Origin: Escherichia phage VerenaMeyer_Bas76
Sequence record: PQ850632.1
Direction: 5' to 3' (one strand)
DNA length: 43,821 nucleotides
The notes under the pieces are model-generated. The model saw only the letters and a list, made by a program, of their open reading frames with translations. It made no database searches and was not told the DNA's origin. Shown here in pieces: positions 1,823 to 37,078 of this stretch; position 1 is the stretch's first letter, and every line of letters starts with the position of its first letter. The translations under genes were made by a program, and so were the position numbers.

Positions 1823-3304
1823 ATGTTAACTATGAACGGTCAGAATCAGGGTGTTAAGACAAAACACCGGGAATGGCTGCATCACTTCGATAAATGGCAG
1901 AAGGTACGCCACGCTCTTGAAGGCGACCTTATCCGCTATCTGCGCAACGTCGGGAAGAACGAGCCTGACCAGACCTACGCAGCACAGCGACAGGAAGAAT
2001 ACGAGAACGGCGCTATCTGCTACAATTTCACCAAACGCACGCTGGCGGGGATGACGGGGTCAGTGATGCGCAAAGACCCTGAGCAGATTATCCCGCCTGA
2101 ACTTGAGTACCTGTTGCACAACGCTGACGGTTCAGGTGTCGGGCTGTGGCAGCACGCGCAGGATACGCTGATGGAGATTAACTCGATAGGCCGTGGCGGG
2201 TTGCTGGTGGACGCCCCGGAAACAGCCGCAGCAACGGCGGCAGAGCAGAACGCGGGATTATTAAACCCGGTAATCGCATTCTATACCGCGGAGAACATTA
2301 TCAACTGGAGACTCACCCGCATCGGTTCAGTGAACCGCGTGACGATGGTTGTATTGCGTGAGGCATGGGAATACTCGGAACCAGGCGCTGAGTTTGAAAC
2401 AAAATTCGGCGAGCAATACCGCGTCCTTGACCTGATTGACGGTCGCTACCGCCAGCGCATCTACCGCTTCGATGCCGAAGGTGGCGCACAGGATGAAGTA
2501 ATCGAAATCTTCCCGGAACTCGGCGAACAGTTGCGCGGTAAAATCCCGTTCACGTTCATTGGCGCAAGCAACAACGACGCCACTATAGACGATGCGCCTT
2601 TACTGCCGTTAGCTGAGCTAAATATCGGTCATTTCCGCAACAGCGCAGACAATGAGGAGTCCAGCTTCGTTGTAGGCCAGCCTACTCTGTTCATCGCCCC
2701 AGGTGAGAACATGAGCATGGAGCAATGGAAAGAAGCCAACCCTCACGGTGTGCGCATGGGGTCCCGTTCAGGTCATAACATTGGTTACGGCGGCAATGCG
2801 TTTCTGGTTCAGGCAGGAGAGAACAACCTCGCCAAACAGAACATGCTGGATAAAGAGAATCAGGCCATCCAGATTGGCGCGCAGCTTATCACCCCGACGC
2901 AGCAAATCACCGCGGAATCGGCCCGCCTGCAACGCGGCGCCGACACGTCAGTCATGGCAACAATAGCACGTAATGTAAGCATGGCGTATACCGATGCGTT
3001 GCGCTGGGTTGCGGGTATGCTTGGGCTTAGTGAAGATACTGAGATTGAGTTCAAGCTGAATATGGAATTCTTCCTGCAACCTATGACAGCTCAGGACCGC
3101 GCTCAGTGGATGGCGGATATTAACGCTGGCCTGCTACCCGCCACCGCTTACTATGCTGCGTTGCGCAAGGCAGGTGTGACTGACTGGACAGATGAGGACA
3201 TTCAGAACGCTATTGAAGACGCACCTCTGCCGTTGGGTTCTGTTGCTCAGGTAGCGGGAGAGATTCCGCAGTCGGCGCAGCAACAGGACACCACTCAGCA
3301 GTAA
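1823..3304 (+). CDS. portal protein
   Basis: 493 aa, ATG after AAGAGGA. Sits between terminase and head morphogenesis genes; size and acidic C-terminus are typical of portal proteins. Confidence 0.75.
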   Translation: MLTMNGQNQGVKTKHREWLHHFDKWQKVRHALEGDLIRYLRNVGKNEPDQTYAAQRQEEYENGAICYNFTKRTLAGMTGSVMRKDPEQIIPPELEYLLHNADGSGVGLWQHAQDTLMEINSIGRGGLLVDAPETAAATAAEQNAGLLNPVIAFYTAENIINWRLTRIGSVNRVTMVVLREAWEYSEPGAEFETKFGEQYRVLDLIDGRYRQRIYRFDAEGGAQDEVIEIFPELGEQLRGKIPFTFIGASNNDATIDDAPLLPLAELNIGHFRNSADNEESSFVVGQPTLFIAPGENMSMEQWKEANPHGVRMGSRSGHNIGYGGNAFLVQAGENNLAKQNMLDKENQAIQIGAQLITPTQQITAESARLQRGADTSVMATIARNVSMAYTDALRWVAGMLGLSEDTEIEFKLNMEFFLQPMTAQDRAQWMADINAGLLPATAYYAALRKAGVTDWTDEDIQNAIEDAPLPLGSVAQVAGEIPQSAQQQDTTQQ

Positions 3305-3314
3305 GTTCACCTAT

Positions 3315-3336
3315 AGCCCCGAAAGGGGCTTTCTTA
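3315..3336 (+). terminator. stem-loop AGCCCC-GAAA-GGGGCT followed by TTCTT (attenuator-like)
   Basis: Perfect 6-bp GC stem with GAAA tetraloop and a short T-run between the portal and head morphogenesis genes. Confidence 0.4.
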
Positions 3337-3340
3337 TAGT

Positions 3341-4417
3341 ATGCTATTAACTTTAGCGCCACAGGGTTTATCTATGAGCTTACTTACATCCCTAATCAGC
3401 CATCAGATATGGCTGCAACGCACCGCATCCGGTGAGGTGAAAGACCTCACGCCGTTCATTCAGGAGATAAGGGATGAAATCAAACGGCAGGTGCTGTTAT
3501 TCGGTGACGACGGTCGCAGCACTGCGCGACTGAATAAACTGTTACGCGACCTGGAAGAAGCACTAACCGGTATTACGGGTGACTGGCAAACAAAGCTAAC
3601 AGACGACCTTAAGGAACTGGCGGCGTACGAGGCTGAGTGGAACGTAAAGACACTGACCGCCAACGTAGACGCGGAATTTGTTACGCCTACCGCTGAGCAG
3701 GTATGGGCCGCTGCCGAGTTTCAACCATTATCATTGAGCGACAAGCCCGTTGATTTCACCAAGCTGATGTCTGGATGGGGCGAAACGGAAGTAGCACGTC
3801 TTGTAACTGGAGTTAAGATGGGCTTTGTGCAAGGTCAAACCACACGGCAGATTGTTAAGAATGTTGTTGGCGCTGGTGGACTAGCCGACATCTCAGAACG
3901 TAACGCGACTACGGTAATCCGCACCGCGCTGTCCCACGTATCCAACGAGGCCCGTAACGAGACGTACCGCCAGAACGACGACATCATCGAGAAGTACGAG
4001 TGGGTGTCAACGCTTGACAGCCGCACCAGTACGATTTGCAGGGTCAGAGACGGGATGACGTGGGAAATTGGTAAGGGGCCGATGCCCCCAGCCCATCCGA
4101 ACTGCCGGTCGTGCACGGCTCCGGTAATCAGTTCCGAGTTCGACTTCCTCGATAAAGGCGCAAAACGCGCGGCTAAAGGCGCGGAAGGTGGCACTCAGGT
4201 AAGCGCAGACACCACTTACTACGAGTTCCTTAAACAACAACCGGCGTGGTTTCAGGACCAGGCGCTCGGCCCGGTGCGAGGTAAGATTTTCCGTAACAGC
4301 GGTATATCGCCGGAAGAGTTTCGCGTAATATCTGTAGATGGTTTCGGGAATCCGCTCACGCTTAAGCAGATGGCGGAACTCGATAAACGTGTTGCTGATT
4401 ATCTGAAAGGGGAATAA
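3341..4417 (+). CDS. head morphogenesis protein (SPP1 gp7 / Mu F-like)
   Basis: 358 aa, directly after portal. Composition and position match the minor head protein family usually found after portal. ATG 3374 is an alternative start. Confidence 0.6.
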   Translation: MLLTLAPQGLSMSLLTSLISHQIWLQRTASGEVKDLTPFIQEIRDEIKRQVLLFGDDGRSTARLNKLLRDLEEALTGITGDWQTKLTDDLKELAAYEAEWNVKTLTANVDAEFVTPTAEQVWAAAEFQPLSLSDKPVDFTKLMSGWGETEVARLVTGVKMGFVQGQTTRQIVKNVVGAGGLADISERNATTVIRTALSHVSNEARNETYRQNDDIIEKYEWVSTLDSRTSTICRVRDGMTWEIGKGPMPPAHPNCRSCTAPVISSEFDFLDKGAKRAAKGAEGGTQVSADTTYYEFLKQQPAWFQDQALGPVRGKIFRNSGISPEEFRVISVDGFGNPLTLKQMAELDKRVADYLKGE

Positions 4418-4878
4418 TGATGGGCTTTTTCAAAGTAACTGACGTACCGTCTCGTCGCGTAGTCCAGTACGCCCGCGTGTCTGGCTCTGGCGAGAACGTG
4501 GTATTTATTGAGGACGAAAGTGTACTCGGTACACCGGTAGATGATATGCCGTTTGCAGATAAAACCGGTATTGCGTTGCCCGCCGCCGGTATGCTTTATG
4601 AAATTCCGTATCTGGCGGACGCTGGCGACGTGTATTTCTCTGTGCAACCAAAAGACGCTGAACTGGCCGACGGCAGCGCGACTATCACTGTCGAAGTTAA
4701 AGCAGGTGAAGCGCCGTATGCACTGACCTGGTACAAAGACGGTAAGGAAGTTGTCAACGCCCCGGAAGAGGCACTTTCCTTGACGGTTAACGCAGTGGGT
4801 GAATACTTCGTTAAAGTTACCGATGCTGATGGTGTAGAGGCTGTCAGTAAAGCTGCGAAGGTCACTAAGCCCGAATGA
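4417..4878 (+). CDS. Ig-like domain protein (possible capsid decoration protein)
   Basis: 153 aa, start overlaps the previous stop (TAATGATG). The C-terminal segment YALTWYKDGKEV...GEYFVKVTDADG is an Ig-like/BIG fold signature, paralogous to the C-terminus of ORF 7880..8221. Confidence 0.55.
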   Translation: MMGFFKVTDVPSRRVVQYARVSGSGENVVFIEDESVLGTPVDDMPFADKTGIALPAAGMLYEIPYLADAGDVYFSVQPKDAELADGSATITVEVKAGEAPYALTWYKDGKEVVNAPEEALSLTVNAVGEYFVKVTDADGVEAVSKAAKVTKPE

Positions 4879-12166: not shown

Positions 12167-12395
12167 ACTCATCAATATTACTTCGATACTCCCGTAACTT
12201 CTCCAGACTTTCAATTGCTTCTGCTAAGTCGGTTCCGGTGTCCTTATGCCCGCGAAGACCCATGCACAATAACTTCTTCAATGCGTGCTGTAGTGCGGGG
12301 TCACGGATGTCGAAGGCACGGAGAACATCGTAAACGTCTACGGTCATAGTGCTGCCGTGAGTGTTTGTCATTGTTCGGTTGTATTTTGAAGTCAT
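12165..12395 (-). CDS. hypothetical protein (76 aa), last gene of the opposite-strand cassette
   Basis: Start overlaps the upstream stop (ATGA coupling with 12392..13522). No recognisable domain. Confidence 0.45.
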   Translation of the reverse strand: MTSKYNRTMTNTHGSTMTVDVYDVLRAFDIRDPALQHALKKLLCMGLRGHKDTGTDLAEAIESLEKLREYRSNIDE

Positions 12396-13522
12396 CCCAG
12401 CATCTCCGGTGAAATAGTTAAACGTGCGACCTCGCCATATTCGGCGCTATAAGTAATTACATTTGCACTACGGCCTGACATCCACCCGCCGCGGGAGGCA
12501 TAGGCGTCTTTAGCCGCTAAGGTGCGGTGTTGCTCAACAATCATGTTACGGCTTTCTACAATCTTCTGGTGGTGCAGGTGGCCTACGTGGGCGTAGCTAT
12601 AGACACTCTCACCGAACGCTTTGCGGAATTTGGCAATCATAACCGGTTCGATAGCATCGAATCGCGCCTTATGCCCGTGGTGAAAGAACAACGTCGTTTT
12701 TCCGTGTTGCACCATCTTGTAAACATCCGGCGACGTATCGACAATCACTCGGCTGTCGTTCGAATATAAAACTGTGAACATTTCAGCCAGCCATACAGAG
12801 CCTACAGGGTCATGGTTCCCCTGTACGATAAGCAAGCGAACATTTTTATGTTTAACCAGTGCCATATCTACAACACGGCGTACCATACGAATCATGTAGC
12901 GGACGAGTTTCTGGTAGCGAGTGTCTGCGTCCAACACGTGACGCGACTCGGGTGTAACGGCATCCAGACTATCGAAGTGCGCGAAATCACCCAGCAGGTT
13001 AATAACTCCTGTTCCTGCATCCGGTGCTTTCTGAAACGCCGCGTCGAACCAACGAGAGAACAGGTCTTCCGCAATCTTTATATCCCAGTCGTCGCCGCTC
13101 TCGTCGGCCCAGGCAAGCATACCGAGATGGAAATCAGATACCGTGTAAAGATTGAGTAGCTTGTCGTCGCGTTTGGCTCGAGTCGCTTTAGCCGGCGCAA
13201 CTGGCGTAATCTCTGACTTCATGCCTTCAATCACGGCTTTCATCAACTCGACCTGACGTTCAGCGTCGGTGTCTGTCTTAACCCATTGCAACTTAGTATT
13301 GCCGAACTCGTCTACCAGAGACGACGTCCCTTTAATCTTGTAGCCGTCTGGGACAAGGTGGCTAACGTCACGCCCGTGGCCTACACCTTTCTTAGCCAGC
13401 TTCGCTTTACGGATACGAATAACTCGGTCTGAGATGCCGTATTTACGGGCGATGTCTACATTCTTCATCCCGGCGTTCAATTCTTCCTGTAACTGTTCGT
13501 CGGTTATTTTCTTCTGGGCCAT
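12392..13522 (-). CDS. HTH-domain protein fused to calcineurin-like metallophosphoesterase
   Basis: 376 aa. N-terminal HTH (VDIARKYGISDRVIRIRKAKL). Ordered metallophosphatase motifs: SDFHLG, GDFAHFD, GNHD, HHGH, GHLHH. Confidence 0.7.
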   Translation of the reverse strand: MAQKKITDEQLQEELNAGMKNVDIARKYGISDRVIRIRKAKLAKKGVGHGRDVSHLVPDGYKIKGTSSLVDEFGNTKLQWVKTDTDAERQVELMKAVIEGMKSEITPVAPAKATRAKRDDKLLNLYTVSDFHLGMLAWADESGDDWDIKIAEDLFSRWFDAAFQKAPDAGTGVINLLGDFAHFDSLDAVTPESRHVLDADTRYQKLVRYMIRMVRRVVDMALVKHKNVRLLIVQGNHDPVGSVWLAEMFTVLYSNDSRVIVDTSPDVYKMVQHGKTTLFFHHGHKARFDAIEPVMIAKFRKAFGESVYSYAHVGHLHHQKIVESRNMIVEQHRTLAAKDAYASRGGWMSGRSANVITYSAEYGEVARLTISPEMLG

Positions 13523-24195: not shown

Positions 24196-24224
24196 ACTAA
24201 GGCCCCAAACGGGGCCTTTTCTCT
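24196..24224. terminator. bidirectional intrinsic terminator (AAGGCCCC-AAAC-GGGGCCTT)
   Basis: Hairpin with TTTTCTC at the junction of the convergent late (plus) and replication (minus) operons. Third copy of the terminator family. Confidence 0.65.
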
Positions 24225-24360
24225 ACTCTTCTGATAACTTCTCCAGTACAAACGCCAGTTGTGCATTAGCGGCATCCCTCTGTTGCCGTAGTCGTAGAAC
24301 CTCTTCTTCGAGTTCCTTGATACGTTTTTGCAATGCTGGAATCGGGGCTATGATGTTCAT
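24223..24360 (-). CDS. hypothetical 45-aa coiled-coil peptide (below ORF-track cutoff)
   Basis: ATG 24360..24358 overlaps the upstream stop (ATGA). Translation MNIIAPIPALQKRIKELEEEVLRLRQQRDAANAQLAFVLEKLSEE. Ends at the terminator. Confidence 0.3.
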   Translation of the reverse strand: MNIIAPIPALQKRIKELEEEVLRLRQQRDAANAQLAFVLEKLSEE

Positions 24361-24542
24361 TTCTCACCTTCGCTTTTCTTGAAGCTGCGCTTTATGTCCG
24401 GCAGCGTGTAACATCGTGACTTTTCATATTTACCGTTCGAGCTTACTAAAACAAAGCTGTTGCCGTCTTTTGATATGTACTCGATGGTGAAAGTATTGAA
24501 TGAGCGTATGCTGTATATTTCATCACCAACATTAAGTTTCAT
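24357..24542 (-). CDS. hypothetical protein (61 aa)
   Basis: ATGA-coupled to the helicase gene. No motif recognised. Confidence 0.4.
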   Translation of the reverse strand: MKLNVGDEIYSIRSFNTFTIEYISKDGNSFVLVSSNGKYEKSRCYTLPDIKRSFKKSEGEK

Positions 24543-25963
24543 TTCTTACCTCGTCTCTTCATGTAATTAAGCAACTCTTCCTGTACCGATTTTTTCTCGT
24601 CCGTACGCGCGGCAACAACCTCGTCCAGCGTGTCTTTAGCGACGATATGATAGAGGAACACCGGGCGCTCGTGTCCCGCCTGTTTCTGGCGGACCGGGCC
24701 GATGCGCTCAACGACCTGCAAATAGTGCTCAAGGTTCCAGCCTTGTGAAATAAACGCTAGATGGTGTCCGCCGTCCTGTAAATTCAAACCATGCCCGGCT
24801 GACGCAGGATGCACGCATAAGATTTCGATTTCGCCGCGGTTCCACGCTTCCATCTGCTTATTCCCCTTAGCGCCTTTGGCAAACGCCTGCGCCTGCGGGA
24901 AACGTTTCAGGATGCGCTCCAGTTCGTGCTTGAACTGATAGGCCACCAGTAACGGTGCCCCCTGTAACTCCTCAACAATGGACTCGAGCGCATCAAGTTT
25001 CGTGTCGTGCACTTTCTCCCATTCTTTGGTTGCTTCGCCGTCTTCGCCCGTCACATACACGGCACCGGAAGCAATCTGCAAGCACTTAGCCGTTTTAGCG
25101 GCAGCGTTGGCAGCCTGCACCTCCCCACTCTCCAGTTCCGCGATTAACTTTTTCTCCATGTCGTCGTACGCCTGACGCGCTTTCTTCGGCAGGTCTATTT
25201 CGACCGGTACGATAATCGGCGCTTCACAACCAAACCACTCGGCAGGGTCTATGGTCAGGCTGATGTCTTTCATCTTCTGATGAATCTCATTATCCGCACC
25301 CGGTCGTGCATGATACTCGCGGGCCATAGCCGATTTACCTTTCTGTACCGAGTTAAACCAGCGGTCGGTGAATGCTGTGTACGAAGAGCCGAGGCGCTCG
25401 CCAGCGTCGATAAACCAGTTCTGACCCCACAAGTCTTTGAGGCCGTTTGGTGACGGTGTGCCTGTCAGGTTGATGAAACGCTTAACCTTTCCGAACGCAA
25501 CCTTGCTGAGCGCCTTTGCCCGCTTGCTACCACCCGAACGGCTGCGGAACGATTTAAGCTTCGTGCTTTCATCGGCAACGATAACCGTAAAAGGCCAGTC
25601 GTCTTTGCCGTAGTAGTCAATTAGCCACTCGATAACTTCGTAGTTAGTGCACACCACGTTAGCATCTGACTCCAGCGCTGCGATGCGGCGCTTCTCCGAA
25701 CCAGTTGCATCTACGACACGCAGACAAGGGAATTGCCATTTCTCTTGTTCAGCGGGCCACGTACCGGACGCAACACGTAACGGGGCAAGGATTAACACGC
25801 GGTCCTCTTCCGTAAGCTGCCCGTTGCGGAACAGGCGGTTGAGCACCCACATAGTGGAGGAGGTTTTACCTCCCCCCATTCCGCACCAGATATTACAGCG
25901 CGGGTGTTGCAGCATGAACGAAGTCATGAGCTTCTGGTACTCACGCCTTTGAAACTTACTCAT
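24539..25963 (-). CDS. SNF2-family (superfamily II) helicase
   Basis: 474 aa. Walker A GMGGGKTSS, motif II DESTKLK, motif III LTGTPSPN, C-terminal helicase motif QVVERIGPVRQ. Confidence 0.85.
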   Translation of the reverse strand: MSKFQRREYQKLMTSFMLQHPRCNIWCGMGGGKTSSTMWVLNRLFRNGQLTEEDRVLILAPLRVASGTWPAEQEKWQFPCLRVVDATGSEKRRIAALESDANVVCTNYEVIEWLIDYYGKDDWPFTVIVADESTKLKSFRSRSGGSKRAKALSKVAFGKVKRFINLTGTPSPNGLKDLWGQNWFIDAGERLGSSYTAFTDRWFNSVQKGKSAMAREYHARPGADNEIHQKMKDISLTIDPAEWFGCEAPIIVPVEIDLPKKARQAYDDMEKKLIAELESGEVQAANAAAKTAKCLQIASGAVYVTGEDGEATKEWEKVHDTKLDALESIVEELQGAPLLVAYQFKHELERILKRFPQAQAFAKGAKGNKQMEAWNRGEIEILCVHPASAGHGLNLQDGGHHLAFISQGWNLEHYLQVVERIGPVRQKQAGHERPVFLYHIVAKDTLDEVVAARTDEKKSVQEELLNYMKRRGKK

Positions 25964-26753
25964 TTACTGCCCCCATGAACGCCTTTATAAATTCAGCGGC
26001 TACTTGCGGGACGATGGCATTGCCATAACCGCGCAATCGTCCCACTCTTGCGGATACCCCATGAGTTGCCTCGCAAAATCCGCCTGGTATGACTCTAGTT
26101 TCCTTATCTGCTCCATGGTTGGGTTTCCATGAATCCCATAAACATGAAGCCACATCTGGCGATAAAGAGTATCGTTCCTGAATTTTCCGTCCTTTCTGTA
26201 AAATGTCTTGCTGAGATCCCCGTAATCCTTCCATCCTCGCGCCGTTGGTGTCGCCCATCCTCGCGCCAAAGATGATTCTTTTCCTTTCCTGTGGAGAGCC
26301 GACGCTGCAAGCTGGCAATACTGACGCCCCGCAGGCGTAGCCTTTGTCTTCCAGGTTAAGGAATACAAAATCGAGCCAGTGCTTCCCAATTGCTGCTGCA
26401 ACCTGCTCTCCAAACAGCAATTCAGGCTTGCACTCTCTGATGAGCCTGAGAAATGCTGGGGCAAGGTGTCGATCGTCGTCAAATCCGAGAGACTTACCGG
26501 CAACGCTAAACGGCTGGCAAGGTGGTGATCCTGTCCAGAGTCGAGTGCTTTCTGGTATTCCTGCCAGCTGGAGTGCAAGGGGCCACCCTCCGATTCCGGC
26601 AAAGAAGTGACACTGTGTAAATCCTTCCAGGTCTGAAGGGGTGACTTCGGTGATTGATCGTTCATCGACATATCCGTAAGGAATTAGTTTATTGTTAATT
26701 AATTCACGCAGCCACGCGGCTGCGCCTTTATCCCATTCGTTGTAATAGTTCAT
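25956..26753 (-). CDS. DNA (cytosine-5)-methyltransferase, compact form
   Basis: 265 aa. Motif I FFAGIGGW, motif IV GSPPCQPF, ENV-like FGEQV, motif VIII QERKR, motif X GNAIVP. The target-recognition region between VIII and IX is short. Confidence 0.75.
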   Translation of the reverse strand: MNYYNEWDKGAAAWLRELINNKLIPYGYVDERSITEVTPSDLEGFTQCHFFAGIGGWPLALQLAGIPESTRLWTGSPPCQPFSVAGKSLGFDDDRHLAPAFLRLIRECKPELLFGEQVAAAIGKHWLDFVFLNLEDKGYACGASVLPACSVGSPQERKRIIFGARMGDTNGARMEGLRGSQQDILQKGRKIQERYSLSPDVASCLWDSWKPNHGADKETRVIPGGFCEATHGVSARVGRLRGYGNAIVPQVAAEFIKAFMGAVNE

Positions 26754-26941
26754 TTCGCCACCAGAACTAACTCTTTACGCCCGAACGCCGTAACGTTACC
26801 GGTTACGTCTTCAATAACCAGTTTACCGTTCGACTCGACGAACACCGTGTCAACGGCAACAGGACGACGGGTCTTAACGTTGAAAATCATGTCGCCTGGT
26901 ACGATGTCACGTGCTGGTTTGCGGTCATATTCGTGTTTCAT
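26750..26941 (-). CDS. hypothetical protein (63 aa)
   Basis: ATGA-coupled to the methyltransferase gene. Start preceded by the promoter at 26975..27003 and AAGGAA. Confidence 0.45.
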   Translation of the reverse strand: MKHEYDRKPARDIVPGDMIFNVKTRRPVAVDTVFVESNGKLVIEDVTGNVTAFGRKELVLVAK

Positions 26942-27257
26942 TTCTAAATTCCTTATATTGTTGGGGTATGTGCTTACTATAATAGTCTGCTATTAGGGTG
27001 TCAATCTGTTTTATCGAACCAACGACAAAAACATTTGCGCCACGTTTACGTATACGCTCGTGTTCCCGTAGCTGGTGCGGGTCTGGCTTAGTGTTTTCGT
27101 CTTTCTTCACCTCGACGAACCAGACGATGCCGCCGGGTAGAATTGCCAGCAGGTCAGGAGCGCCTGAACGTCCTTCGTAGGAAAGTTTACGAACGAGGCC
27201 ACCAATGGCCTCGAATCGCTCTTTTGCGTATTTCTGGATGCGGCCCTCTTTAGTCAT
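26925..27257 (-). CDS. VRR-NUC domain nuclease
   Basis: 110 aa. PD-(D/E)XK-type motifs GAPDLLAI...VWFVEVKK...QLREHE, characteristic of VRR-NUC. Confidence 0.7.
   Translation of the reverse strand: MTKEGRIQKYAKERFEAIGGLVRKLSYEGRSGAPDLLAILPGGIVWFVEVKKDENTKPDPHQLREHERIRKRGANVFVVGSIKQIDTLIADYYSKHIPQQYKEFRNETRI
26975..27003 (-). promoter_or_regulatory. sigma70-type promoter TTGACA-N17-TATAGT (internal, inside the 3' end of the VRR-NUC gene)
   Basis: Minus-strand reading TTGACACCCTAATAGCAGACTATTATAGT. Same family as 30678 and 32978. Confidence 0.45.
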
Positions 27258-27406
27258 GACCGCAGCATCCAGGTAAGGAAAACCCAGCCTAGAATGGCAA
27301 CACCGGCAAACTGAAAGAACAGGCCGTAACAGAACATAGCAGCTATTCCCGCACCGAGTAACAGTGCGAGCATGGTTACTATGGTCCTAAATACAAACTT
27401 TGTCAT
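27254..27406 (-). CDS. small membrane protein (50 aa, two predicted TM segments; below cutoff)
   Basis: Manual translation MTKFVFRTIVTMLALLLGAGIAAMFCYGLFFQFAGVAILGWVFLTWMLRS. ATG preceded by GAGGGG; ATGA overlaps at both ends. Confidence 0.35.
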   Translation of the reverse strand: MTKFVFRTIVTMLALLLGAGIAAMFCYGLFFQFAGVAILGWVFLTWMLRS

Positions 27407-27492
27407 AATACACACCCCTCACGTTTCGTATGCTCAATCCCGCAGCGCGGACAGATTCGGCAGTCTTCTTCGTATAACCAGTAAATTTTCAT
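27403..27492 (-). CDS. zinc-ribbon-like micro-protein (29 aa; below cutoff)
   Basis: Manual translation MKIYWLYEEDCRICPRCGIEHTKREGCVL with CxxCxxC and a further Cys. ATGA overlaps with both neighbours. Confidence 0.25.
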   Translation of the reverse strand: MKIYWLYEEDCRICPRCGIEHTKREGCVL

Positions 27493-27620
27493 TCCAGCAC
27501 CCACAAATAAATTGCTACTAGCATACCCAATACGGCGACCATCATGCCGTATTGACCCTCGTGACAGTAGACACCAGCGGCGAATCCCGCCAGCACCGCG
27601 ATAATCAGTTTACTTAGCAT
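27489..27620 (-). CDS. small membrane peptide (43 aa; below cutoff)
   Basis: Manual translation MLSKLIIAVLAGFAAGVYCHEGQYGMMVAVLGMLVAIYLWVLE. Start overlaps the DNA polymerase 3' end; stop overlaps the next ATG. Confidence 0.3.
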   Translation of the reverse strand: MLSKLIIAVLAGFAAGVYCHEGQYGMMVAVLGMLVAIYLWVLE

Positions 27621-29781
27621 AGCGTTTTAACTCCTGACCTTCCGCTACAAGAGGGAACCCCTCCGCCCATTCTGGTAATTCGCACATCAATCGCTCAAGC
27701 TCTGCGACATTGTATTCCGGCGTATCTGGAGTTTCGCAGATAATCTCATCGTGGACATGAAGTACAATTGGATAACCGTTTGCTTCTACGTTCAGCAGCG
27801 CGTTGGCCAGCAAATCACGGCACAACGCCTGAGTGCAGTTTTCCACGAGTTTACCGGAATATGTGTACTGGAACCCCCACTGTCGGGTTAGCTGATTTTC
27901 GCCCTGGTACTTGATGCGCACGTTAGTAGACACCTTCCCGTCTTCGTCTGTCTCTTTTGATACGCTTAACCCGACGCCTGGATAAGACATAACACGACCC
28001 GACGGCAGCGTCATACGCAACCACCAACCAGCGACTTTGTTGCCGTTGTTGTCTGTTTCTACGTTACGCGAAAACTTAACCCCGCGCGGCCCTGCGGTGA
28101 ACTCTTTACCCGGATTGCGGATAGCCGCCATAGCTGCATCTTCAATATCGCGCCAGAATTGGACTATTGCTGGGTTAGCTTCCCGGTACATGCGCTTTAA
28201 AGCGTCACAGGTGCGCCAAACTTTCTTATCAAGAATATATGATGGTCGGTCATCTTTTTCACCAGGACGTGGCGGTCGCTTGGCTTCCTGAATACGCGCC
28301 CATTCATATCCTCGTGCGGTAGCGGCCCAGATATGGTCAGGGAAAGTCCCGTCTAAAGTACGGGCCATATCGTTCAAATCAAGCCCTAAGTTTTTAGCAA
28401 ACGTGACGAAAGCCCCTACACCCCCCGCGTAACCCAGTCCGAGAACCATTGCTTTGGCTATTTGTCTTTGGTCCTTTGTTACGTCGTCATAACTAACGTT
28501 GAACACGGTTGATGCGAGTTTCTTATACACATCAACCCCGTTTACAAATACTTCTATTAAATCGTCTTCGCCAGCCAGCCACGCCAAACCACGGCCTTCA
28601 ACGTTAGAGTAATCGGCTACGACAAACTTATGCCCTGCTTCCGGGATAATGCAGCTACGAACCGTCGACGCCGTTAGCTTGGCTACGTCGAAACGGCGAT
28701 GCGCACGACCCTTAAGTAGCGCTGAAATGCCCTTATCCAGTTCATCATCGTGATAGTACCCGCGCGCCAGGTTCTGTGGTTGGAAGCCTTTACCTGCGAA
28801 CCGTAACGTACGCTTGGCCCCACCGTACTGGATGCAACCACGGCGGCGGTCGTCCGACGAGCGACCCAACAGCAGCGGGTTATATTTCGTTGACGCAGTG
28901 GACGCGGCCCCGAGGCGCATTTCTATAATTGTGCGGGCGTCGTCGGGTAAATCCTCATCCACCAGCAGGTCGTTAAGCGTTGACTTCTGTGCATTGTGTA
29001 TGCGGTGCGCGGGCGCAAGTTCACGCAGAATCGGAAGGAAGTCTTTACCGGTAAGCGAGCCGCCGTATTTACGTTGAGCTTCTTCCTGTAACTGTGCCTT
29101 GTGCTTCTCTACGGCTTCAATCGCGGCTTCCGCCAGTGCGACGTCAACCTTAAATCCGCGGTCGTTGATTAACTGGTCAAGCTCCAGTACACGGTCTTCG
29201 AACTCGGAGTTACCCCAACGCGGCAGCTTATGGAAGACTTCACGCATCGCAGTGATGTCGCTCACGGCGTACCTGATGAACATCGCCCACTCGTCAGGGT
29301 GAGTTTCTGCGGTGTAGCGGCGGATTTTGTAGTTCTTCGGCGTCGGTTTAGAGAAACGCTTAATCAGAGCCTTGCCGCGTTTATCTTTCGCGTTGTCTGC
29401 AGACACGCCCAGCACTTCGCACAGCGCATCAAGAGAACCCGGCAGCGCGTGACGAAATGCCCAAATCATCGTATCAATGGTGTTGCTTACCGGAATATCA
29501 AAGCCCCAGCAGTGTTTCATGATGAGCCTGTCGAACATTGAGCCGTTGTGCCACACCATCTTGATGCGGCTGTTTGGCTTCACCAGGCGGCGTAATGCGC
29601 GATGCAAATCACCCGGCATGTCGCTGCCGTCTGTGCAATCCCATACCTGCACAGGCTGGTCGTCAAAAGCATATGTACAAATAAGCACTTCGGTGGTTGG
29701 ATGTTCGGCGTAAGCGTAGGAACCGACTTTCTTTAAATCGGCTTCGGAGAATGTTTCAAAGTCCAGGTATAAGTAGCTCAT
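27610..29781 (-). CDS. DNA polymerase I (family A) with 3'-5' exonuclease domain
   Basis: Exo I motif LDFETFS; polymerase motif A DYSNVEGR, motif B RQIAKAMVLGLGYAGG, motif C VLHVHDE. ATG at 29781 (preceded by AAGGAAA) preferred; the ORF track extends to a GTG at 29850. Confidence 0.9.
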   Translation of the reverse strand: MSYLYLDFETFSEADLKKVGSYAYAEHPTTEVLICTYAFDDQPVQVWDCTDGSDMPGDLHRALRRLVKPNSRIKMVWHNGSMFDRLIMKHCWGFDIPVSNTIDTMIWAFRHALPGSLDALCEVLGVSADNAKDKRGKALIKRFSKPTPKNYKIRRYTAETHPDEWAMFIRYAVSDITAMREVFHKLPRWGNSEFEDRVLELDQLINDRGFKVDVALAEAAIEAVEKHKAQLQEEAQRKYGGSLTGKDFLPILRELAPAHRIHNAQKSTLNDLLVDEDLPDDARTIIEMRLGAASTASTKYNPLLLGRSSDDRRRGCIQYGGAKRTLRFAGKGFQPQNLARGYYHDDELDKGISALLKGRAHRRFDVAKLTASTVRSCIIPEAGHKFVVADYSNVEGRGLAWLAGEDDLIEVFVNGVDVYKKLASTVFNVSYDDVTKDQRQIAKAMVLGLGYAGGVGAFVTFAKNLGLDLNDMARTLDGTFPDHIWAATARGYEWARIQEAKRPPRPGEKDDRPSYILDKKVWRTCDALKRMYREANPAIVQFWRDIEDAAMAAIRNPGKEFTAGPRGVKFSRNVETDNNGNKVAGWWLRMTLPSGRVMSYPGVGLSVSKETDEDGKVSTNVRIKYQGENQLTRQWGFQYTYSGKLVENCTQALCRDLLANALLNVEANGYPIVLHVHDEIICETPDTPEYNVAELERLMCELPEWAEGFPLVAEGQELKRYAK

Positions 29782-29945
29782 TTCTTTTTCCTTAAATCCA
29801 GTGCCTTCGTTTCGCTTAATCTTATTTTCATACAATTGCGGCAAATCCACACATGCCTGTACCCGGCCCGGTACTCATCCGCGTACCACGGAAGCGGTTT
29901 CATATAGCGGTAAACGTGCTTACAGAAAAACATTATTTTCGACCC

Positions 29946-33303: not shown

Positions 33304-35526
33304 CTATTCCAAATCCTCCTCTGTCACCACCAGCATCTCATTTGGTTCGTATAGTGTCTTCGGCCTTAATCTATCCCCTATTCTTTCGGGTATACGATAT
33401 GTTCTCGGTACTACTTCGCCGTTAGCATCGCAACCAAGCATTAGTTCTCCATCTTTCAACATTTTATCAAGATGGGTGTTAGTCACAGAGAAGTCACCGG
33501 AACGAGCCACTATCTGCTGCTGAGTAAAACCGCGACCTGTGTCATCTGACTGTTGCAGGTCTTCCAGTGCCGAAAGTATTGACTCCTTCCTTACTTCATC
33601 CCTGCCGCGTTTAACTTCTTCCTTTACTTTTTGCTTACCTTCTTTCGTCAACCCTTCTTCCCGCTCTTTCTCCTCGTCAGTTTTGAACGGCTCGAAACCC
33701 CACGGCATCAACACAAGCGCCTTGTGTGGTTCAGGAAGGTCCAGGTTTACGATTGTGCCGTATTCTTCTGTGCCCCCCAGGAACTCAACCGCACGGTACT
33801 CTTTCGGCGGCGGAGCTTCGCGGAACTGCACAGACTCCAGCACCATGCCAACCGTTTTCTGTTGAGGACCGTGCTTAAATTTCGAGTGGTATACGTTTAT
33901 TTGACGGTCGGTTGCACGTTCGATTGTCAGTTCCACGTCAACACCCGCATACAGCGCCCCACTGCCGCGTGCTTTCTTTCCACCCTTCGGCGTATGGTGG
34001 ACAACGCCTACTGCGGCTTTAGTTGCATCGCGTACTTCTTTCAGAATGGCGATAACTTTACCCATGCCGATTGCTGTTGATGAACTGTTCTCGTCGAACT
34101 TATCAATCGTCAGTGCCAGGGTCTGGTTAAGGGTGTCGAACGCAACCATGCCAATTGGCTCGTCGCCAGCAGTTTCGCGCATTAACTTAATCAGGCTTTT
34201 AAGTTTGCCGACTTCGCCCATATCGATGACGTGTACATAATCTTTACCTTCCCCGCCATATTTAGCCGCTAGTGCATCAATACGGGTGCGTGTAGCTGCG
34301 CCACCCTCACCATCAATATAGAAATGGTGGCAACGCTGGGTATCCGCCCCCGCAAACCTGTACCCGGCGGCGCTGAGGTACATCATCCCCAGCGTATAGA
34401 ACGATTTGTACGTGCCAGATTCCCCGACGATATCCCAGATACAATCCGACGGCATGTACCCCTCAACGACGAAATCAGCCTTTACCGGCTCCGGTAACTC
34501 GTCCTCCTCTGAGTCCTCGTCGTCTTCCAGGTCGTCGAGGCTGCAAGTTACTGGGTCCTCGTTCTCTGTGCGGTGTAGTTCTTCAATCTCTTCTTCCGGT
34601 AAATCAGGCAGAGCCGCACGAATGCTGTTAATGCTGATAGGTTGCTTATCTATGTTAAGCTCGTCGGGTAGGCCACACATACGCAGGGCCAAATGCTGCC
34701 TACGGTTAAGCTCGGTGCAAGCGCCGTTGTTTGTATGCTGGCAGACAAAGCGCACTTCTTTACCGTCGAGCATTATGCTGGTGGAGCCCTTGCCTGTATG
34801 CAGATGTTCGTTAGGGCATGGCACTTCGTACCCGCGCCCGGAAGATAAAGCGTCAAGGCCAAGCTCGGCTTCGCAGAAGTGTGCTATATCCGCGTTAAGC
34901 CCATGCTCATCAGCGGCAAGTGTTTTAGCCTCACGCTTACGCAACCCCATCTCTTCGGCTTTCTTGATGTACCGCTCAGCACGGATAACACGCCCTTCTG
35001 TAACCGTTATCTTCGACTCTTTATGCGGCAGGTAGATAAGGCGGTTGCCGTCTTCTGTGCAGTGGTCGCGCAACGCTTCGTCTATTTCTAACTCTGCACA
35101 AATAGCACGTTGCACCATCCACGCGTCGTTAGAGTTAAACGGCGTGCGAGCTGGAACCAGAACGCGGAAAGCGTAATCTCCATTTTTACATGCGTGCTGA
35201 TGCGATGCCGTTGTGTGCAGAATATTGAAGAACGGCGCGTTCTTGAATTTGCGTGTCAGGTCGCGGTACTGAGTACGGTTGAGATGGTCGAAATCGAACT
35301 TAACCACACTGTCTTCCAGGATAGCGTTTTTACGGCGACCACCAACAGGCGCAATAGCTTTCTGTTTAATCTTGGCAGCGTCGTACTCTTCCTTAGTCCA
35401 TGACGGGTCCACGGATAAACGCTTCGATGTATCGCAGACATACTCGACAAACTGCTCCAGCGGCATTTCACGCGCTACAGGGTTTTTATCGAATGTGTTA
35501 CGCAGCGTTGCAAAAACAATATTCAT
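33304..35526 (-). CDS. DNA primase / replicative helicase (primase-polymerase-like N-terminus, zinc-binding region, RecA-like ATPase)
   Basis: 740 aa. Cys/His cluster CPNEHLH...C, Walker A-like GESGTYKS, RecA-like helicase core. Ends VTEEDLE. Confidence 0.65.
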   Translation of the reverse strand: MNIVFATLRNTFDKNPVAREMPLEQFVEYVCDTSKRLSVDPSWTKEEYDAAKIKQKAIAPVGGRRKNAILEDSVVKFDFDHLNRTQYRDLTRKFKNAPFFNILHTTASHQHACKNGDYAFRVLVPARTPFNSNDAWMVQRAICAELEIDEALRDHCTEDGNRLIYLPHKESKITVTEGRVIRAERYIKKAEEMGLRKREAKTLAADEHGLNADIAHFCEAELGLDALSSGRGYEVPCPNEHLHTGKGSTSIMLDGKEVRFVCQHTNNGACTELNRRQHLALRMCGLPDELNIDKQPISINSIRAALPDLPEEEIEELHRTENEDPVTCSLDDLEDDEDSEEDELPEPVKADFVVEGYMPSDCIWDIVGESGTYKSFYTLGMMYLSAAGYRFAGADTQRCHHFYIDGEGGAATRTRIDALAAKYGGEGKDYVHVIDMGEVGKLKSLIKLMRETAGDEPIGMVAFDTLNQTLALTIDKFDENSSSTAIGMGKVIAILKEVRDATKAAVGVVHHTPKGGKKARGSGALYAGVDVELTIERATDRQINVYHSKFKHGPQQKTVGMVLESVQFREAPPPKEYRAVEFLGGTEEYGTIVNLDLPEPHKALVLMPWGFEPFKTDEEKEREEGLTKEGKQKVKEEVKRGRDEVRKESILSALEDLQQSDDTGRGFTQQQIVARSGDFSVTNTHLDKMLKDGELMLGCDANGEVVPRTYRIPERIGDRLRPKTLYEPNEMLVVTEEDLE

Positions 35527-35651
35527 TTCTTTTTCTCCGCACGTTCTAAGGCTTCCTGCATACGGCGCATTGCGCGGTTCATCTTTACCGGCGCGAAGAA
35601 ATCGGCGCCGTGTTTCTGTCGGCGCAGCTGTGGAACTATTAACTTCGTCAT
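35523..35651 (-). CDS. hypothetical 42-aa basic peptide (below cutoff)
   Basis: Manual translation MTKLIVPQLRRQKHGADFFAPVKMNRAMRRMQEALERAEKKK. Stop overlaps the primase ATG (ATGA). Confidence 0.3.
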   Translation of the reverse strand: MTKLIVPQLRRQKHGADFFAPVKMNRAMRRMQEALERAEKKK

Positions 35652-35720
35652 TGTATAATCCTTGTGCTTACTTTGATGATTTGTGCTTTGGCCCCGACGT
35701 TCTTGCGTTGGGGTTTCTTT

Positions 35721-36011
35721 TTACCGTTTAGCCAACTCTTCCAGCAAATTTTTATACTCTTCAAAATATTCCTCGACCAAATCATCGCCGAAATAGAAGT
35801 CGATATACTCGAGATTATCTCTTACGTTAAGCGATGCCGACATGGTGCTTAGTTGGCGTAAGCTAATTAGCTTCATTTCTGTTTCTACACAGAAAGGCCG
35901 GTAGGTATCAAGATGGCAAGAGATATTGAAACATAAGGCGAACTCTCCCGCCACGGTGTGGACCATATACACTTCGTTTTCTGCTTTATTGTGGAAAATT
36001 ACGCCTTTCAT
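35721..36011 (-). CDS. hypothetical protein (96 aa)
   Basis: ATGA-coupled to the upstream HTH gene. No motif recognised. Confidence 0.45.
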   Translation of the reverse strand: MKGVIFHNKAENEVYMVHTVAGEFALCFNISCHLDTYRPFCVETEMKLISLRQLSTMSASLNVRDNLEYIDFYFGDDLVEEYFEEYKNLLEELAKR

Positions 36012-36190
36012 TTCACGTTCTCCTTAATCCATGCTTCGACTTTATTACGGTCAAATGTTCCCGGTAAACGGCGGCCCATAACCTTAATACAGCAGTCAGG
36101 GAATTTGCCGCTGCGCAACCAGTTATTAATGGTCTGACGTGTCACCCCGATACGTTCAGCTACTTCATTCTGCGTCATATAATGCGACAT
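36008..36190 (-). CDS. AlpA/excisionase-like HTH DNA-binding protein
   Basis: Motif MTQNEVAERIGVTRQTINNWLRSGKFP. ATG at 36190 preceded by AGGAGAT; the ORF track extends to 36304. Confidence 0.55.
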   Translation of the reverse strand: MSHYMTQNEVAERIGVTRQTINNWLRSGKFPDCCIKVMGRRLPGTFDRNKVEAWIKENVK

Positions 36191-36287
36191 TTTTATATCT
36201 CCTGTTTGTTTGGTGAAACTGAGTATAGGATAGCGGGAATGTAAAAGCAACCAATCTCTGTAATATTTAATCTTTACAAAAATGTTA

Positions 36288-36317
36288 TTGAAAGTTCTTG
36301 ACACATGTTTGTATAAT
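36288..36317 (+). promoter_or_regulatory. candidate promoter TTGAAA-N18-TATAAT
   Basis: -35 at 36288-36293, -10 at 36312-36317. Directs transcription into the non-coding region 36325-36540. Confidence 0.3.
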
Positions 36318-36344
36318 GGTTTTGGGACTTGTATATATTACGGA

Positions 36345-36376
36345 GTTGACGAACCCTCCCCGAGGGATTCGTCAAC
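36345..36376 (+). other. long imperfect hairpin (GTTGACGAACCCTC / GAGGGATTCGTCAAC) in the control region
   Basis: 14-bp stem with one bulge and a 3-nt loop, seen directly. Flanked by two copies of the 12-mer AACCCTCCCCGA (36352-36363 and 36568-36579). Confidence 0.5.
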
Positions 36377-36516
36377 CCCTCCCAGACAGCTGAGATGCTT
36401 GCCTTGGGGTTTAAGGATAAGTGTATCTAAATCTCATTTAAAGAAGTAACCCGCTGAAATATCTACTGTTTCTTAATGTGCCGTAGATTCGCAACCGTAA
36501 AAATGTAACGATTATT

Positions 36517-36540
36517 GGGCAGGCTTAAGCCTGCCCTTTA
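36517..36540 (+). terminator. terminator-like hairpin GGGCAGGC-TTAA-GCCTGCCC plus TTTA
   Basis: Perfect 8-bp GC-rich stem with a short T-run. Confidence 0.4.
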
Positions 36541-36608
36541 GTTACCAAGTAATAAGAATAAAGGCACAACCCTCCCCGAAGAATCACAACGGCAACGTAA
36601 CTATTCTC

Positions 36609-36637
36609 TTGCACACCCCAATATAATAGGATACTAT
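36609..36637 (+). promoter_or_regulatory. sigma70-type promoter TTGCAC-N17-TACTAT (early promoter family copy 3)
   Basis: TTGCACACCCCAATATAATAGGATACTATTCA followed by the leader CGAAACGAGACAGAGGAG. Confidence 0.55.
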
Positions 36638-36662
36638 TCACTTATCGAAACGAGACAGAGGA

Positions 36663-36863
36663 GTGGTGGTTATGTTTAAGAAGGGTCAGTTGATTAAAAC
36701 GATGTACGGTAGCTTAGGTATTATTGAAAAGAAATCGGCAGTGTACCGAAGTTCTTATGTCGTTAGCTTACTCAGGGAGCACGGGTTAAGTTCCGCGGCG
36801 TATTACCAAGAGTATGAAATGAAACTAATTGGCAACAATTTTAAATTCAAAGGGGTGAAGTGA
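36663..36863 (+). CDS. hypothetical early protein (66 aa)
   Basis: First ORF after promoter copy 3. GTG 36663 or ATG 36672. Confidence 0.45.
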   Translation: MVVMFKKGQLIKTMYGSLGIIEKKSAVYRSSYVVSLLREHGLSSAAYYQEYEMKLIGNNFKFKGVK

Positions 36864-37078
36864 TGGAAGAATTAATTTGTATTGAATCCCGCCAGGATGT
36901 GCAGGATTGGTTTGTGAAAGGTAACAAATATTCGTCAGGAGTATATTACGACGGCCGTCGATACGTTTTAGATGAAGACGGTGATGAATGGGATTTAGAG
37001 GACACTGTGGGCGAGACTTTAACCGTTAGTTTTCTTCAATGTTGTTTCCGCATCATTCACAACGGCGCCGAATCATGA
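36860..37078 (+). CDS. hypothetical early protein (72 aa)
   Basis: Start overlaps the upstream stop. Acidic protein. Confidence 0.45.
   Translation: MMEELICIESRQDVQDWFVKGNKYSSGVYYDGRRYVLDEDGDEWDLEDTVGETLTVSFLQCCFRIIHNGAES

Follow-up and report, generated by a model that had tools for sequence, protein, structure and literature searches.

A shifted reading frame inside a compact phage C5-cytosine methyltransferase gene probably supplies the missing DNA-recognition part of the enzyme

Escherichia phage VerenaMeyer_Bas76 (PQ850632.1) encodes a compact C5-cytosine methyltransferase in the leftward (minus-strand) replication module of its genome. The stretch of DNA that was analysed, referred to hereafter as the window, comprises 43,821 nucleotides (nt; 43.8 kb) and corresponds approximately to a complete Kagunavirus (Guernseyvirinae) genome. 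The methyltransferase gene (frame A, 25956-26753, minus strand) specifies a catalytic subunit of 265 amino acids (aa), and nested within it, in the +1 frame, is a second open reading frame (ORF) of 223 aa (frame B, 26000-26671, minus strand). The two products are called alpha and beta, respectively. An initial annotation of the window considered frame A only and described an enzyme with all catalytic motifs and a very short target-recognition region. The comparisons described here suggest that the 265-aa methyltransferase is short because a second protein, encoded in a shifted frame inside its gene, probably supplies the missing DNA-recognition part.

Frame A belongs to the C5-cytosine methyltransferase family (PF00145, E=1e-21; phrog_363, E=6e-75) and its catalytic core is intact, as the initial annotation stated. 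Comparison with structures of M.HhaI by phmmer (E=5e-12; the reference sequence was identical to PDB 10mh_A) aligned the PCQ, ENV and QxRxR elements. Motif I, for binding of S-adenosylmethionine, is FFAGIGG (residues 50-56, 26586-26606), aligned to FAGLGG of M.HhaI; motif IV is PPCQPFS (residues 77-83, 26505-26525), aligned to PCQ, with the catalytic residue Cys79; motif VI is FGEQV (residues 114-118, 26400-26414), a variant of ENV aligned to FMENV; and motif VIII is QERKR (residues 155-159, 26277-26291), aligned to QKRER. Motif X, GNAIVP (residues 244-249, 26007-26024), was assigned by pattern and not by alignment to a hidden Markov model (HMM); its residues G244, N245 and A246 are invariant in the family alignment. 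All of these lie on the minus strand. When the frame-A profile was compared by hhalign with a profile of the M.HhaI family (98.3% probability, E=1e-14), residues 33-165 of frame A aligned to residues 1-171 of M.HhaI, which covers motifs I-VIII only. The Pfam and hhalign matches both end at motif VIII, and residues 171-200 cannot be aligned across the family. The motif IX core, [LM][QM]G[FY]P, was found in none of the 162 frame-A proteins of the family. Motifs I, IV, VI, VIII and X are present, then, but the statement that all catalytic motifs are there does not hold for the 265-aa frame.

Frame B spans 84% of frame A and is matched by phrog_1008 (E=3e-20). Its first ATG (26671) lies ~82 nt downstream of the frame-A start, and a second in-frame ATG is located at 26665. 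The first ~72 residues (26456-26671, minus strand) form a leader that overlaps frame-A motifs I-IV, is free of stops and shows no sequence constraint of its own; it is predicted to be disordered, with a predicted local distance difference test (pLDDT) score below 50 in AlphaFold2 (AF2). The leader is followed by a conserved helix and beta-hairpin (LN..LESRLQQQLGSTGSILYSLTWKTKATPAGRQYCQLAAS; 26297-26425, minus strand) encoded by the same nucleotides as frame-A motifs VI-VIII, in which L83, L87, G99, T106, W107 and K108 are invariant and the AF2 pLDDT is 70-84. In the middle of frame B is a W.TP module (GWATPTARGWKD; 26225-26260, minus strand). According to alignments and module counts, the unit GW.TP.A.D.K occurs in 0-5 copies across the family and once in the window. 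Family members differ in length by differing in this array, through which frame A reads, and the module is a candidate target-recognition element. Stretches unique to beta include LYSLTWK and QLMGYPQEWDDCAVMAMPSSR.

In addition to the W.TP module, frame B holds a sequence that resembles motif IX (ARQLMGYPQEWDDC), in a block (KLESYQADFARQLMGYPQEWDDC; 26033-26101, minus strand) where frame-B constraint is highest. The pattern W[LM][ML]G.[PR] was found in 126 of 162 frame-B proteins, inside the longer pattern G.LNP..SRWLMG[FY]P.EWD.C; the core in the window is ARQLMGYPQEW. Alignment of the frame-B profile to M.HhaI by hhalign gave a sole match, within residues 271-293 (271-290 reads TRKLHPRECARVMGYPDSYK), which is motif IX (E=0.048), and motif IX was again the sole match to a profile of 30 M.HhaI relatives (E=0.024). 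The similarity is weak, yet it is unique and reproducible and falls at the place expected of motif IX, with the MGYP core of frame B ~35 nt upstream of motif X in frame A.

To compare the two frames across the family, we used 160 related loci from viral contigs and genomes of many phyla. The longest stop-free run in the +1 frame covered on average 88% of the gene and never less than 59% (164 loci, GC content 45-71%), while in the same loci the +2 frame was open over 24% of the gene and had ~13 stops. Synonymous codons were then permuted within each gene, 300 times, such that the frame-A protein and its codon usage were kept exactly. In 140 of 162 loci the real +1 run was longer than at least 95% of the shuffles, and in 81 it was longer than all 300. 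For the +2 frame, which served as a control, the outcome was null, with p<0.05 in 6 of 162 loci. In the window the open +1 run is 227 codons, compared to a mean of 74 and a maximum of 151 in the shuffles, and in the leader, where 3.9 stops were expected, none of the 300 shuffles was stop-free. In the reciprocal test, with the frame-B protein fixed, frame A was open beyond expectation in all 162 loci.

The residues of frame B are conserved as well as its openness. An HMM of frame B trained on the genome loci was used to score the independent viral loci. Real +1 translations averaged 301 bits and synonymous shuffles 150 bits, and the real translation outscored the best shuffle in 74 of 74 loci (281 bits versus 135 for the window). 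About half of the conservation of frame B is therefore passive, inherited from frame A, and half is its own.

A map of constraint along the gene was made from 141 non-redundant sequences by comparing the real residue in each column with shuffles synonymous in the other frame, and is expressed as excess bits per residue. For motifs I-VIII taken together, frame A had an excess of 2.4-5.5 bits. In residues 31-100 of frame A (motifs I-IV) the excess was 2.7-5.5 bits, versus 0.1-0.4 in the overlapping frame-B leader (1-76). In residues 101-170 (motifs VI-VIII) it was 1.6-3.9 for frame A and 0.8-2.4 for frame B (77-146), so this stretch is genuinely doubly coding; within the helix-hairpin block the frame-B excess was 1.3-2.4 and that of frame A 1.6-3.9. 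The relationship is reversed further downstream. Residues 171-200 of frame A had an excess of only 0.4-0.6 bits, compared to 0.9-1.3 in the W.TP region of frame B; over the W.TP module itself the values were 0.5-0.6 for frame A and 0.9-1.7 for frame B. At residues 221-240 frame A had 1.1-1.5 bits and frame B (197-216) had 3.1-4.0, the strongest constraint specific to frame B, after which motif X (residues 241-250) brought frame A back to 3.8 bits. Along the DNA, then, the blocks under constraint come in the canonical order of motifs I-VIII, variable region, motif IX and motif X, with the variable region and motif IX in the +1 frame. Throughout a very large family, frame A and frame B are each kept open and conserved by purifying selection of their own, and we regard it as nearly certain that both are protein-coding under selection.

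The region around the frame-B start also bears on its translation. The position of the first ATG of frame B is concentrated at residues 25-39 of frame A, within the VDERSI.DV block, and a sequence resembling a Shine-Dalgarno (SD) site is present upstream of it in ~46% of loci. At the arginine of the D-x-R-S-I position (the 26650-26664 region in the window) AGG makes up 25% of the Arg codons, compared to 11% gene-wide. Together with neighbouring codons AGG forms GAAAGGAGC, which is SD-like and lies ~10 nt upstream of the frame-B ATG. These features are indirect evidence that frame B is translated, and beta would be initiated independently of alpha.

In a few loci frame B carries additional domains. 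A prophage beside an integrase (L168, Logan contig DRR294231) contains, at 2925-4494, a 497-aa fusion of beta to Dam that overlaps a 329-aa alpha. Frame B of this locus occupies 3001-4494. Its start is 76 nt downstream of the ATG of frame A, it stays open across the entire overlap, and it extends a further 580 nt beyond the frame-A stop, into a Dam N6-adenine methyltransferase domain (PF05869, E=4e-53), with no ATG between the two. Another locus (L009, IMGVR_UViG_2974755438_000001) has an in-frame Endonuclease_7/HNH domain (PF02945, E=1e-24) in frame B before the usual RKSQRNS tail. Such in-frame joining to known domains would be difficult to account for if frame B were not read. In a further entry, P0360, a Cys-rich stretch of ~170 residues is inserted into the leader of frame B, and its only match is a weak, Stc1-like one.

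Three rare entries combine parts of both frames. In P0039, residues 1-102 of frame A are joined to the core of frame B at the junction TTT C; in L093, frame-A motifs I-VIII run on into frame-B motif IX; and in L140, frame B runs into the C-terminus of frame A.

Products of frame B are abundant in the databases. An exhaustive profile search recovered at least 30,811 representative clusters, 8,322 of them at E<=1e-30; the starts of nearly all fall at profile positions 1-7, and Pfam domains are absent from every one. They are without a Pfam or NCBIfam family and are named 'hypothetical protein' or, wrongly, 'restriction enzyme', and in PHROGs phrog_1008 is called 'DNA methyltransferase'. A search of NCBIfam with frame B of the window likewise gave no match. 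With tblastn, the frame-B product matched 228 phage records, including Xanthomonas, Vibrio and Rhodobacter phages, a cyanophage and N15, and all of these matches lie under a methyltransferase gene. XAP3, N15 and Marilyn each have an annotated gene with the match in its +1 frame; for cyanophage Cr-LKS3 the annotation instead covers the frame-B product and omits the 322-codon frame-A ORF that lies over it. Among plasmids there were 15 records, all with the match under a 'DNA cytosine methyltransferase' or in unannotated sequence, and none bore an informative name. The RefSeq and GenBank records of phage K1G have annotated both ORFs since about 2010, as ORF31 ('C-specific methylase') and ORF30 ('Mte8-like'), while only frame A is annotated in the records of Bas71 and Bas75. 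'Mte8' may perhaps be an old database name for the enzyme M.EcoHK31I; the sole phage paper found to use this label does not explain it.

Taken together, the arrangement of the two frames is likely to represent a C5-methyltransferase of two polypeptides, alpha and beta, like M.EcoHK31I. Alpha would be the catalytic Rossmann core with motifs I-VIII as well as X, and its segment between motifs VIII and X a poorly constrained, tolerant linker. Beta, of up to 223 aa, would start at the internal ATG in the +1 frame and consist of the disordered leader followed by the helix-hairpin block, the variable W.TP module and the motif-IX block. Beta may associate with alpha and complete the small domain, contributing motif IX and probably target recognition, and by analogy with M.EcoHK31I methylation would need both products. 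The enzyme presumably methylates the phage DNA at a specific site and so would evade particular restriction systems. The independent initiation of beta, the association of the chains, the recognition role of beta, and the activity and specificity of the enzyme are inferences.

If this is correct, the short length of alpha says little about the target. The very short target-recognition region results from reading a single frame, given that the 223-aa +1 ORF carries the motif-IX-like block and the W.TP module. The initial annotation also proposed a short or relaxed recognition site from the small size of the enzyme. This does not follow, as the frame-A region between motifs VIII and X has just 0.4-0.6 bits per residue while it is the +1 frame that contains motif IX and the variable modules under constraint, which makes a second polypeptide the most likely recognition part.

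Several results weigh against a two-polypeptide enzyme. Neither a comparison of the frame-B profile with PDB sequences (HMMER) nor a comparison of each member with Pfam gave a meaningful match. The AF2 model of frame B alone, made with 54 homologs, had a mean pLDDT of 58.5, with only residues ~78-125 and ~150-205 at 70-84, and Foldseek returned nothing below E=0.2 when this model was compared to PDB. The model of frame A (56 homologs) had a pLDDT of 41, probably from a shallow alignment of sequences 70-92% identical. The motif IX match is statistically weak (E=0.02-0.05 and probability 1-2% in hhalign) because the block is short. In the window the codon at the Arg of the D-x-R-S-I position is CGA, and just a weak SD (GGA) is present upstream of the frame-B ATGs. 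Finally, the published prediction for M.EcoHK31I places its target-recognition domain in alpha, whereas in the window it is frame B, not frame A, that shows constraint over the variable module-repeat region. Some of these points would suit a frame B that is translated without being a methyltransferase subunit, as an independent overprinted protein such as a DNA-binding regulator or an anti-defence factor, with alpha a self-sufficient compact methylase. In favour of this, frame B has neither a sequence match in Pfam or PDB nor a fold match, its similarity to motif IX is short and weak, and it is found joined to the unrelated Dam and EndoVII domains, which might happen to a modular DNA-binding protein. 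We consider this unlikely. It leaves alpha without motif IX in 162 of 162 loci and with an essentially unconstrained segment between motifs VIII and X, and it does not account for the strongest constraint in frame B falling at the place of motif IX, upstream of motif X with the canonical motif order kept. Moreover, the sole experimentally studied enzyme of the same gene architecture requires both chains, and the Dam fusion ties frame B to DNA methylation.

Frame-specific constraint that follows the canonical order along the DNA might also be produced by programmed frameshifting, if ribosomes made a single chain by reading frame A through motif VIII, shifting +1 so that the variable region and motif IX are read in frame B, and returning to frame A for motif X. 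In a simpler version one +1 shift would fuse the N-terminal part of alpha to the C-terminal part of beta. The hybrid entries P0039, L093 and L140 would fit, but each comes from a single contig or metagenome-assembled genome and may reflect an indel error, a decaying gene or a real variant. A ribosome that switches frames has no need for frame B to be open ~80 codons upstream of its core, with constraint of its own over motifs VI-VIII, nor for frame A to stay open through the whole variable region as it does in 162 of 162 loci. A conserved slippery site was not identified, the frame-B start has a conserved ATG, often with an SD, and two consecutive programmed shifts would be unprecedented. We judge a frameshifted single chain very unlikely; the version with two shifts was rejected, since both frames are kept open where switching would not need it. 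The remaining alternative is that the +1 frame is not translated, and is open as a by-product of the composition or codons of frame A or of a constraint at the level of the nucleic acid, in which case the gene would encode a single compact enzyme. Composition does contribute, as the shuffles too had fewer stops in the +1 frame (6.5) than in the +2 frame (13.4), the loci of highest GC were not individually significant in the shuffle test, and the passive part of the frame-B HMM score is about half. Shuffles that preserve both the protein and its codon usage nevertheless speak against this reading in 140 of 162 loci. The residues of frame B scored ~150 bits above the passive expectation in all 74 loci, their constraint peaks where frame A is unconstrained, and a frame that is never read would not be expected to show in-frame Dam and EndoVII fusions or to be represented by 30,811 clusters. 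A compositional artefact was rejected on the basis of the synonymous shuffles, and an untranslated +1 frame is barely credible.

We also considered, more tentatively, an extension of the two-polypeptide enzyme from the window to its relatives. The whole phage and prophage family of 'orphan Dcm-like' methylases could be obligate alpha/beta enzymes with a +1 specificity subunit over ~85% of the catalytic gene, and the W.TP array of 0-5 units in beta could set their specificity, its units being swappable and expandable; we hold this to be possible, though somewhat less probable than its opposite. The family numbers no fewer than 8,000 clusters for frame A and no fewer than 30,000 representative clusters for frame B, from Proteobacteria, Acidobacteria, Verrucomicrobia, cyanophages and others. 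If true, these would be among the longest and most widespread same-strand dual-coding pairs in prokaryotic viruses, and they are unannotated in most genomes.

The cassette is a mosaic among close relatives. The region 24300-27500 is 99.1% identical to that of Escherichia phage LotteLoewe_Bas71 and 85-97% identical to those of K1G, K1H, K1ind1-3 and other Kagunavirus isolates of the BASEL collection. Relative to K1G (L002), frame A is 61% and frame B 42% identical, while the flanking genes are ~87-95% identical. The first ~60 and last ~35 residues of frame A are nearly identical to those of K1G, which indicates that the centre was swapped; Bas75, like K1G, has a different cassette. Bas80 (PQ850597), a siphovirus of a different (Skatevirus-cluster) group in the same collection, has an identical frame B (100% over 219 aa). 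These comparisons suggest that the cassette was recently exchanged horizontally.

The replication module consists, in order, of DNA polymerase A (27610-29850, minus strand), three tiny ORFs, a resolvase, a 63-aa ORF, the methyltransferase, an SNF2 helicase, two ORFs of 61 and 45 aa, and a terminator-like hairpin. The resolvase (26925-27257, minus strand; 110 aa) is the VRR-NUC-like nuclease. Its score against Pfam VRR_NUC (PF08774; 18.4 bits, E=0.0024) is under the 23.8-bit cut-off, and in PHROGs it matches phrog_93 ('endonuclease', E=2e-32) and phrog_5702 ('Holliday junction resolvase', E=4e-19). The 63-aa hypothetical protein (26750-26941, minus strand) matches phrog_4879 (E=3e-46). The SNF2-type helicase (24539-25963, minus strand; 474 aa) matches PF00176 (E=4e-13) and is called 'DNA helicase' in the Bas71 and K1G records. 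The stop of the 63-aa ORF and the start of the methyltransferase share the sequence ATGA, and the methyltransferase stop and the helicase start overlap by 8 nt (ATGAGTAA). Through these overlaps the genes are translationally coupled, consistent with a single operon, and the earlier placing of the methyltransferase in an operon together with genes for an SNF2 helicase and a VRR-NUC-like nuclease was borne out in its coordinates and families.

The hairpin at the leftward end of the operon (24199-24218, minus strand; AAGGCCCCGTTTGGGGCCTT) is a strong one, with an 8-bp stem of which 6 pairs are G-C and a T-rich tail after it, and separates the converging tailspike gene, which ends at 24194, from the replication operon. 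No minus-strand terminator-like site was found in the operon upstream of 24218-24199. A near-consensus sequence resembling a sigma-70 promoter (26976-27004, minus strand; TTGACA, 17-nt spacer, TATAGT, 11 of 12 matches) is located in the 3' portion of the VRR-NUC gene, a short distance upstream of the 63-aa ORF, the methylase and the helicase; the number of promoter-like sites in the region is not above chance. Elsewhere in the window, a 376-aa ORF (12392-13522, minus strand) is located on the opposite strand within the rightward structural module. Its match to Metallophos_2 is weak and below threshold (E=2e-4), and it may be a moron-type insertion. At ~35000-37000 the GC content falls to 0.41 and the GC skew changes sign, which coincides with the boundary of the leftward replication module and the strand switch.

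An arrangement of this kind had been taken to suggest that modification is coupled to DNA processing by the helicase and the nuclease. The family does not follow this pattern. An SNF2 homolog flanks 9 of the 160 loci and a VRR-NUC homolog 2 of 160, and in N15, XAP3, Marilyn and Cr-LKS3 the neighbours of the methylase are unrelated. The linkage is a lineage-specific property of the Guernseyvirinae replication module and not of the methylase family. The genes beside the methylase (helicase, small hypothetical proteins, resolvase and DNA polymerase) include no cognate restriction endonuclease, and the methylase is therefore an orphan. A role in protection from restriction had also been proposed. 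In the phenotyping of the BASEL collection, the Kagunavirus isolates Bas70-76 were highly sensitive to the restriction-modification systems tested (PMC11990801), which argues against broad protection. A site-specific anti-restriction role is plausible and is the default expectation for an orphan phage methylase.

The enzyme of Bas76 is not, on this evidence, a minimal methylase of relaxed specificity, and the 265-aa product alone is the wrong basis for predicting its specificity. Cloning a recoded frame A alone, or codon-optimising it, would silently destroy beta and probably yield an inactive enzyme. Standard annotation drops one ORF, keeping frame A in Bas71 and only frame B in other records, and as a consequence tens of thousands of database proteins without a Pfam family are unexplained frame-B products. 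The family is a well-sampled natural system for two proteins that share 600-1,100 nt, with zones constrained in a single frame, zones of double constraint and a leader in which openness alone is maintained. Should beta prove to carry the specificity modules, the methylomes of prophage-bearing strains could be used to decode W.TP content into target sites; a literature search found no Kagunavirus methylome. It also found no description of family-wide dual coding in this methylase family. The kind of arrangement is already known from M.EcoHK31I and from the nested ORF of K1G, and what appears to be under-appreciated is the scale of the dual coding and the depth of its conservation. The same appears to hold for the indication that the variable specificity modules are located in the nested frame, of which the literature search likewise found no description.

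Both ORFs are annotated in K1G, the type species of Kagunavirus; Bas71, the closest relative of the window, has frame A alone annotated. ORF31 and ORF30 of K1G form an orthologous locus, with the helicase and the resolvase on its flanks as in the window. Its central cassette has diverged and its variable module is different, and no function or alpha/beta interpretation is attached to ORF30 in its annotation. M.HhaI and M.HaeIII (PF00145) share with the window a homologous frame-A core and the canonical order of blocks along the DNA. They are encoded in one frame as one chain, while in the window it is the +1 frame that encodes the variable region and motif IX. M.AquI is a C5-methyltransferase of two polypeptides that have to assemble and, like the enzyme proposed here, is split within the variable region (PMC3404938). 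Its small subunit contains the distal variable region together with motifs IX and X, and its genes are essentially consecutive. In the window the large subunit retains motif X, and the small one is nested entirely within it in a different frame.

M.EcoHK31I (E. coli HK31, recognising YGGCCR) was reportedly described in 1995. The coding sequence of its beta chain lies wholly inside that of alpha in a different frame, motifs I-VIII and X are in alpha and motif IX is in beta, both chains are required, and the N-terminal part of beta is separable from the part with motif IX (PMC2836561, PMC3404938). No record named after EcoHK31I was among those found in our database searches, and the comparison was made with its published description. 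The likeness extends to the gene arrangement, with a small ORF (26000-26671 in the window) wholly within a large ORF (25956-26753) on the same strand and in another frame, and, as far as the weak motif IX match in the window allows, to the split of motifs between the frames. M.EcoHK31I is part of a restriction-modification system, whereas the enzyme in the window is an orphan in a phage replication operon.

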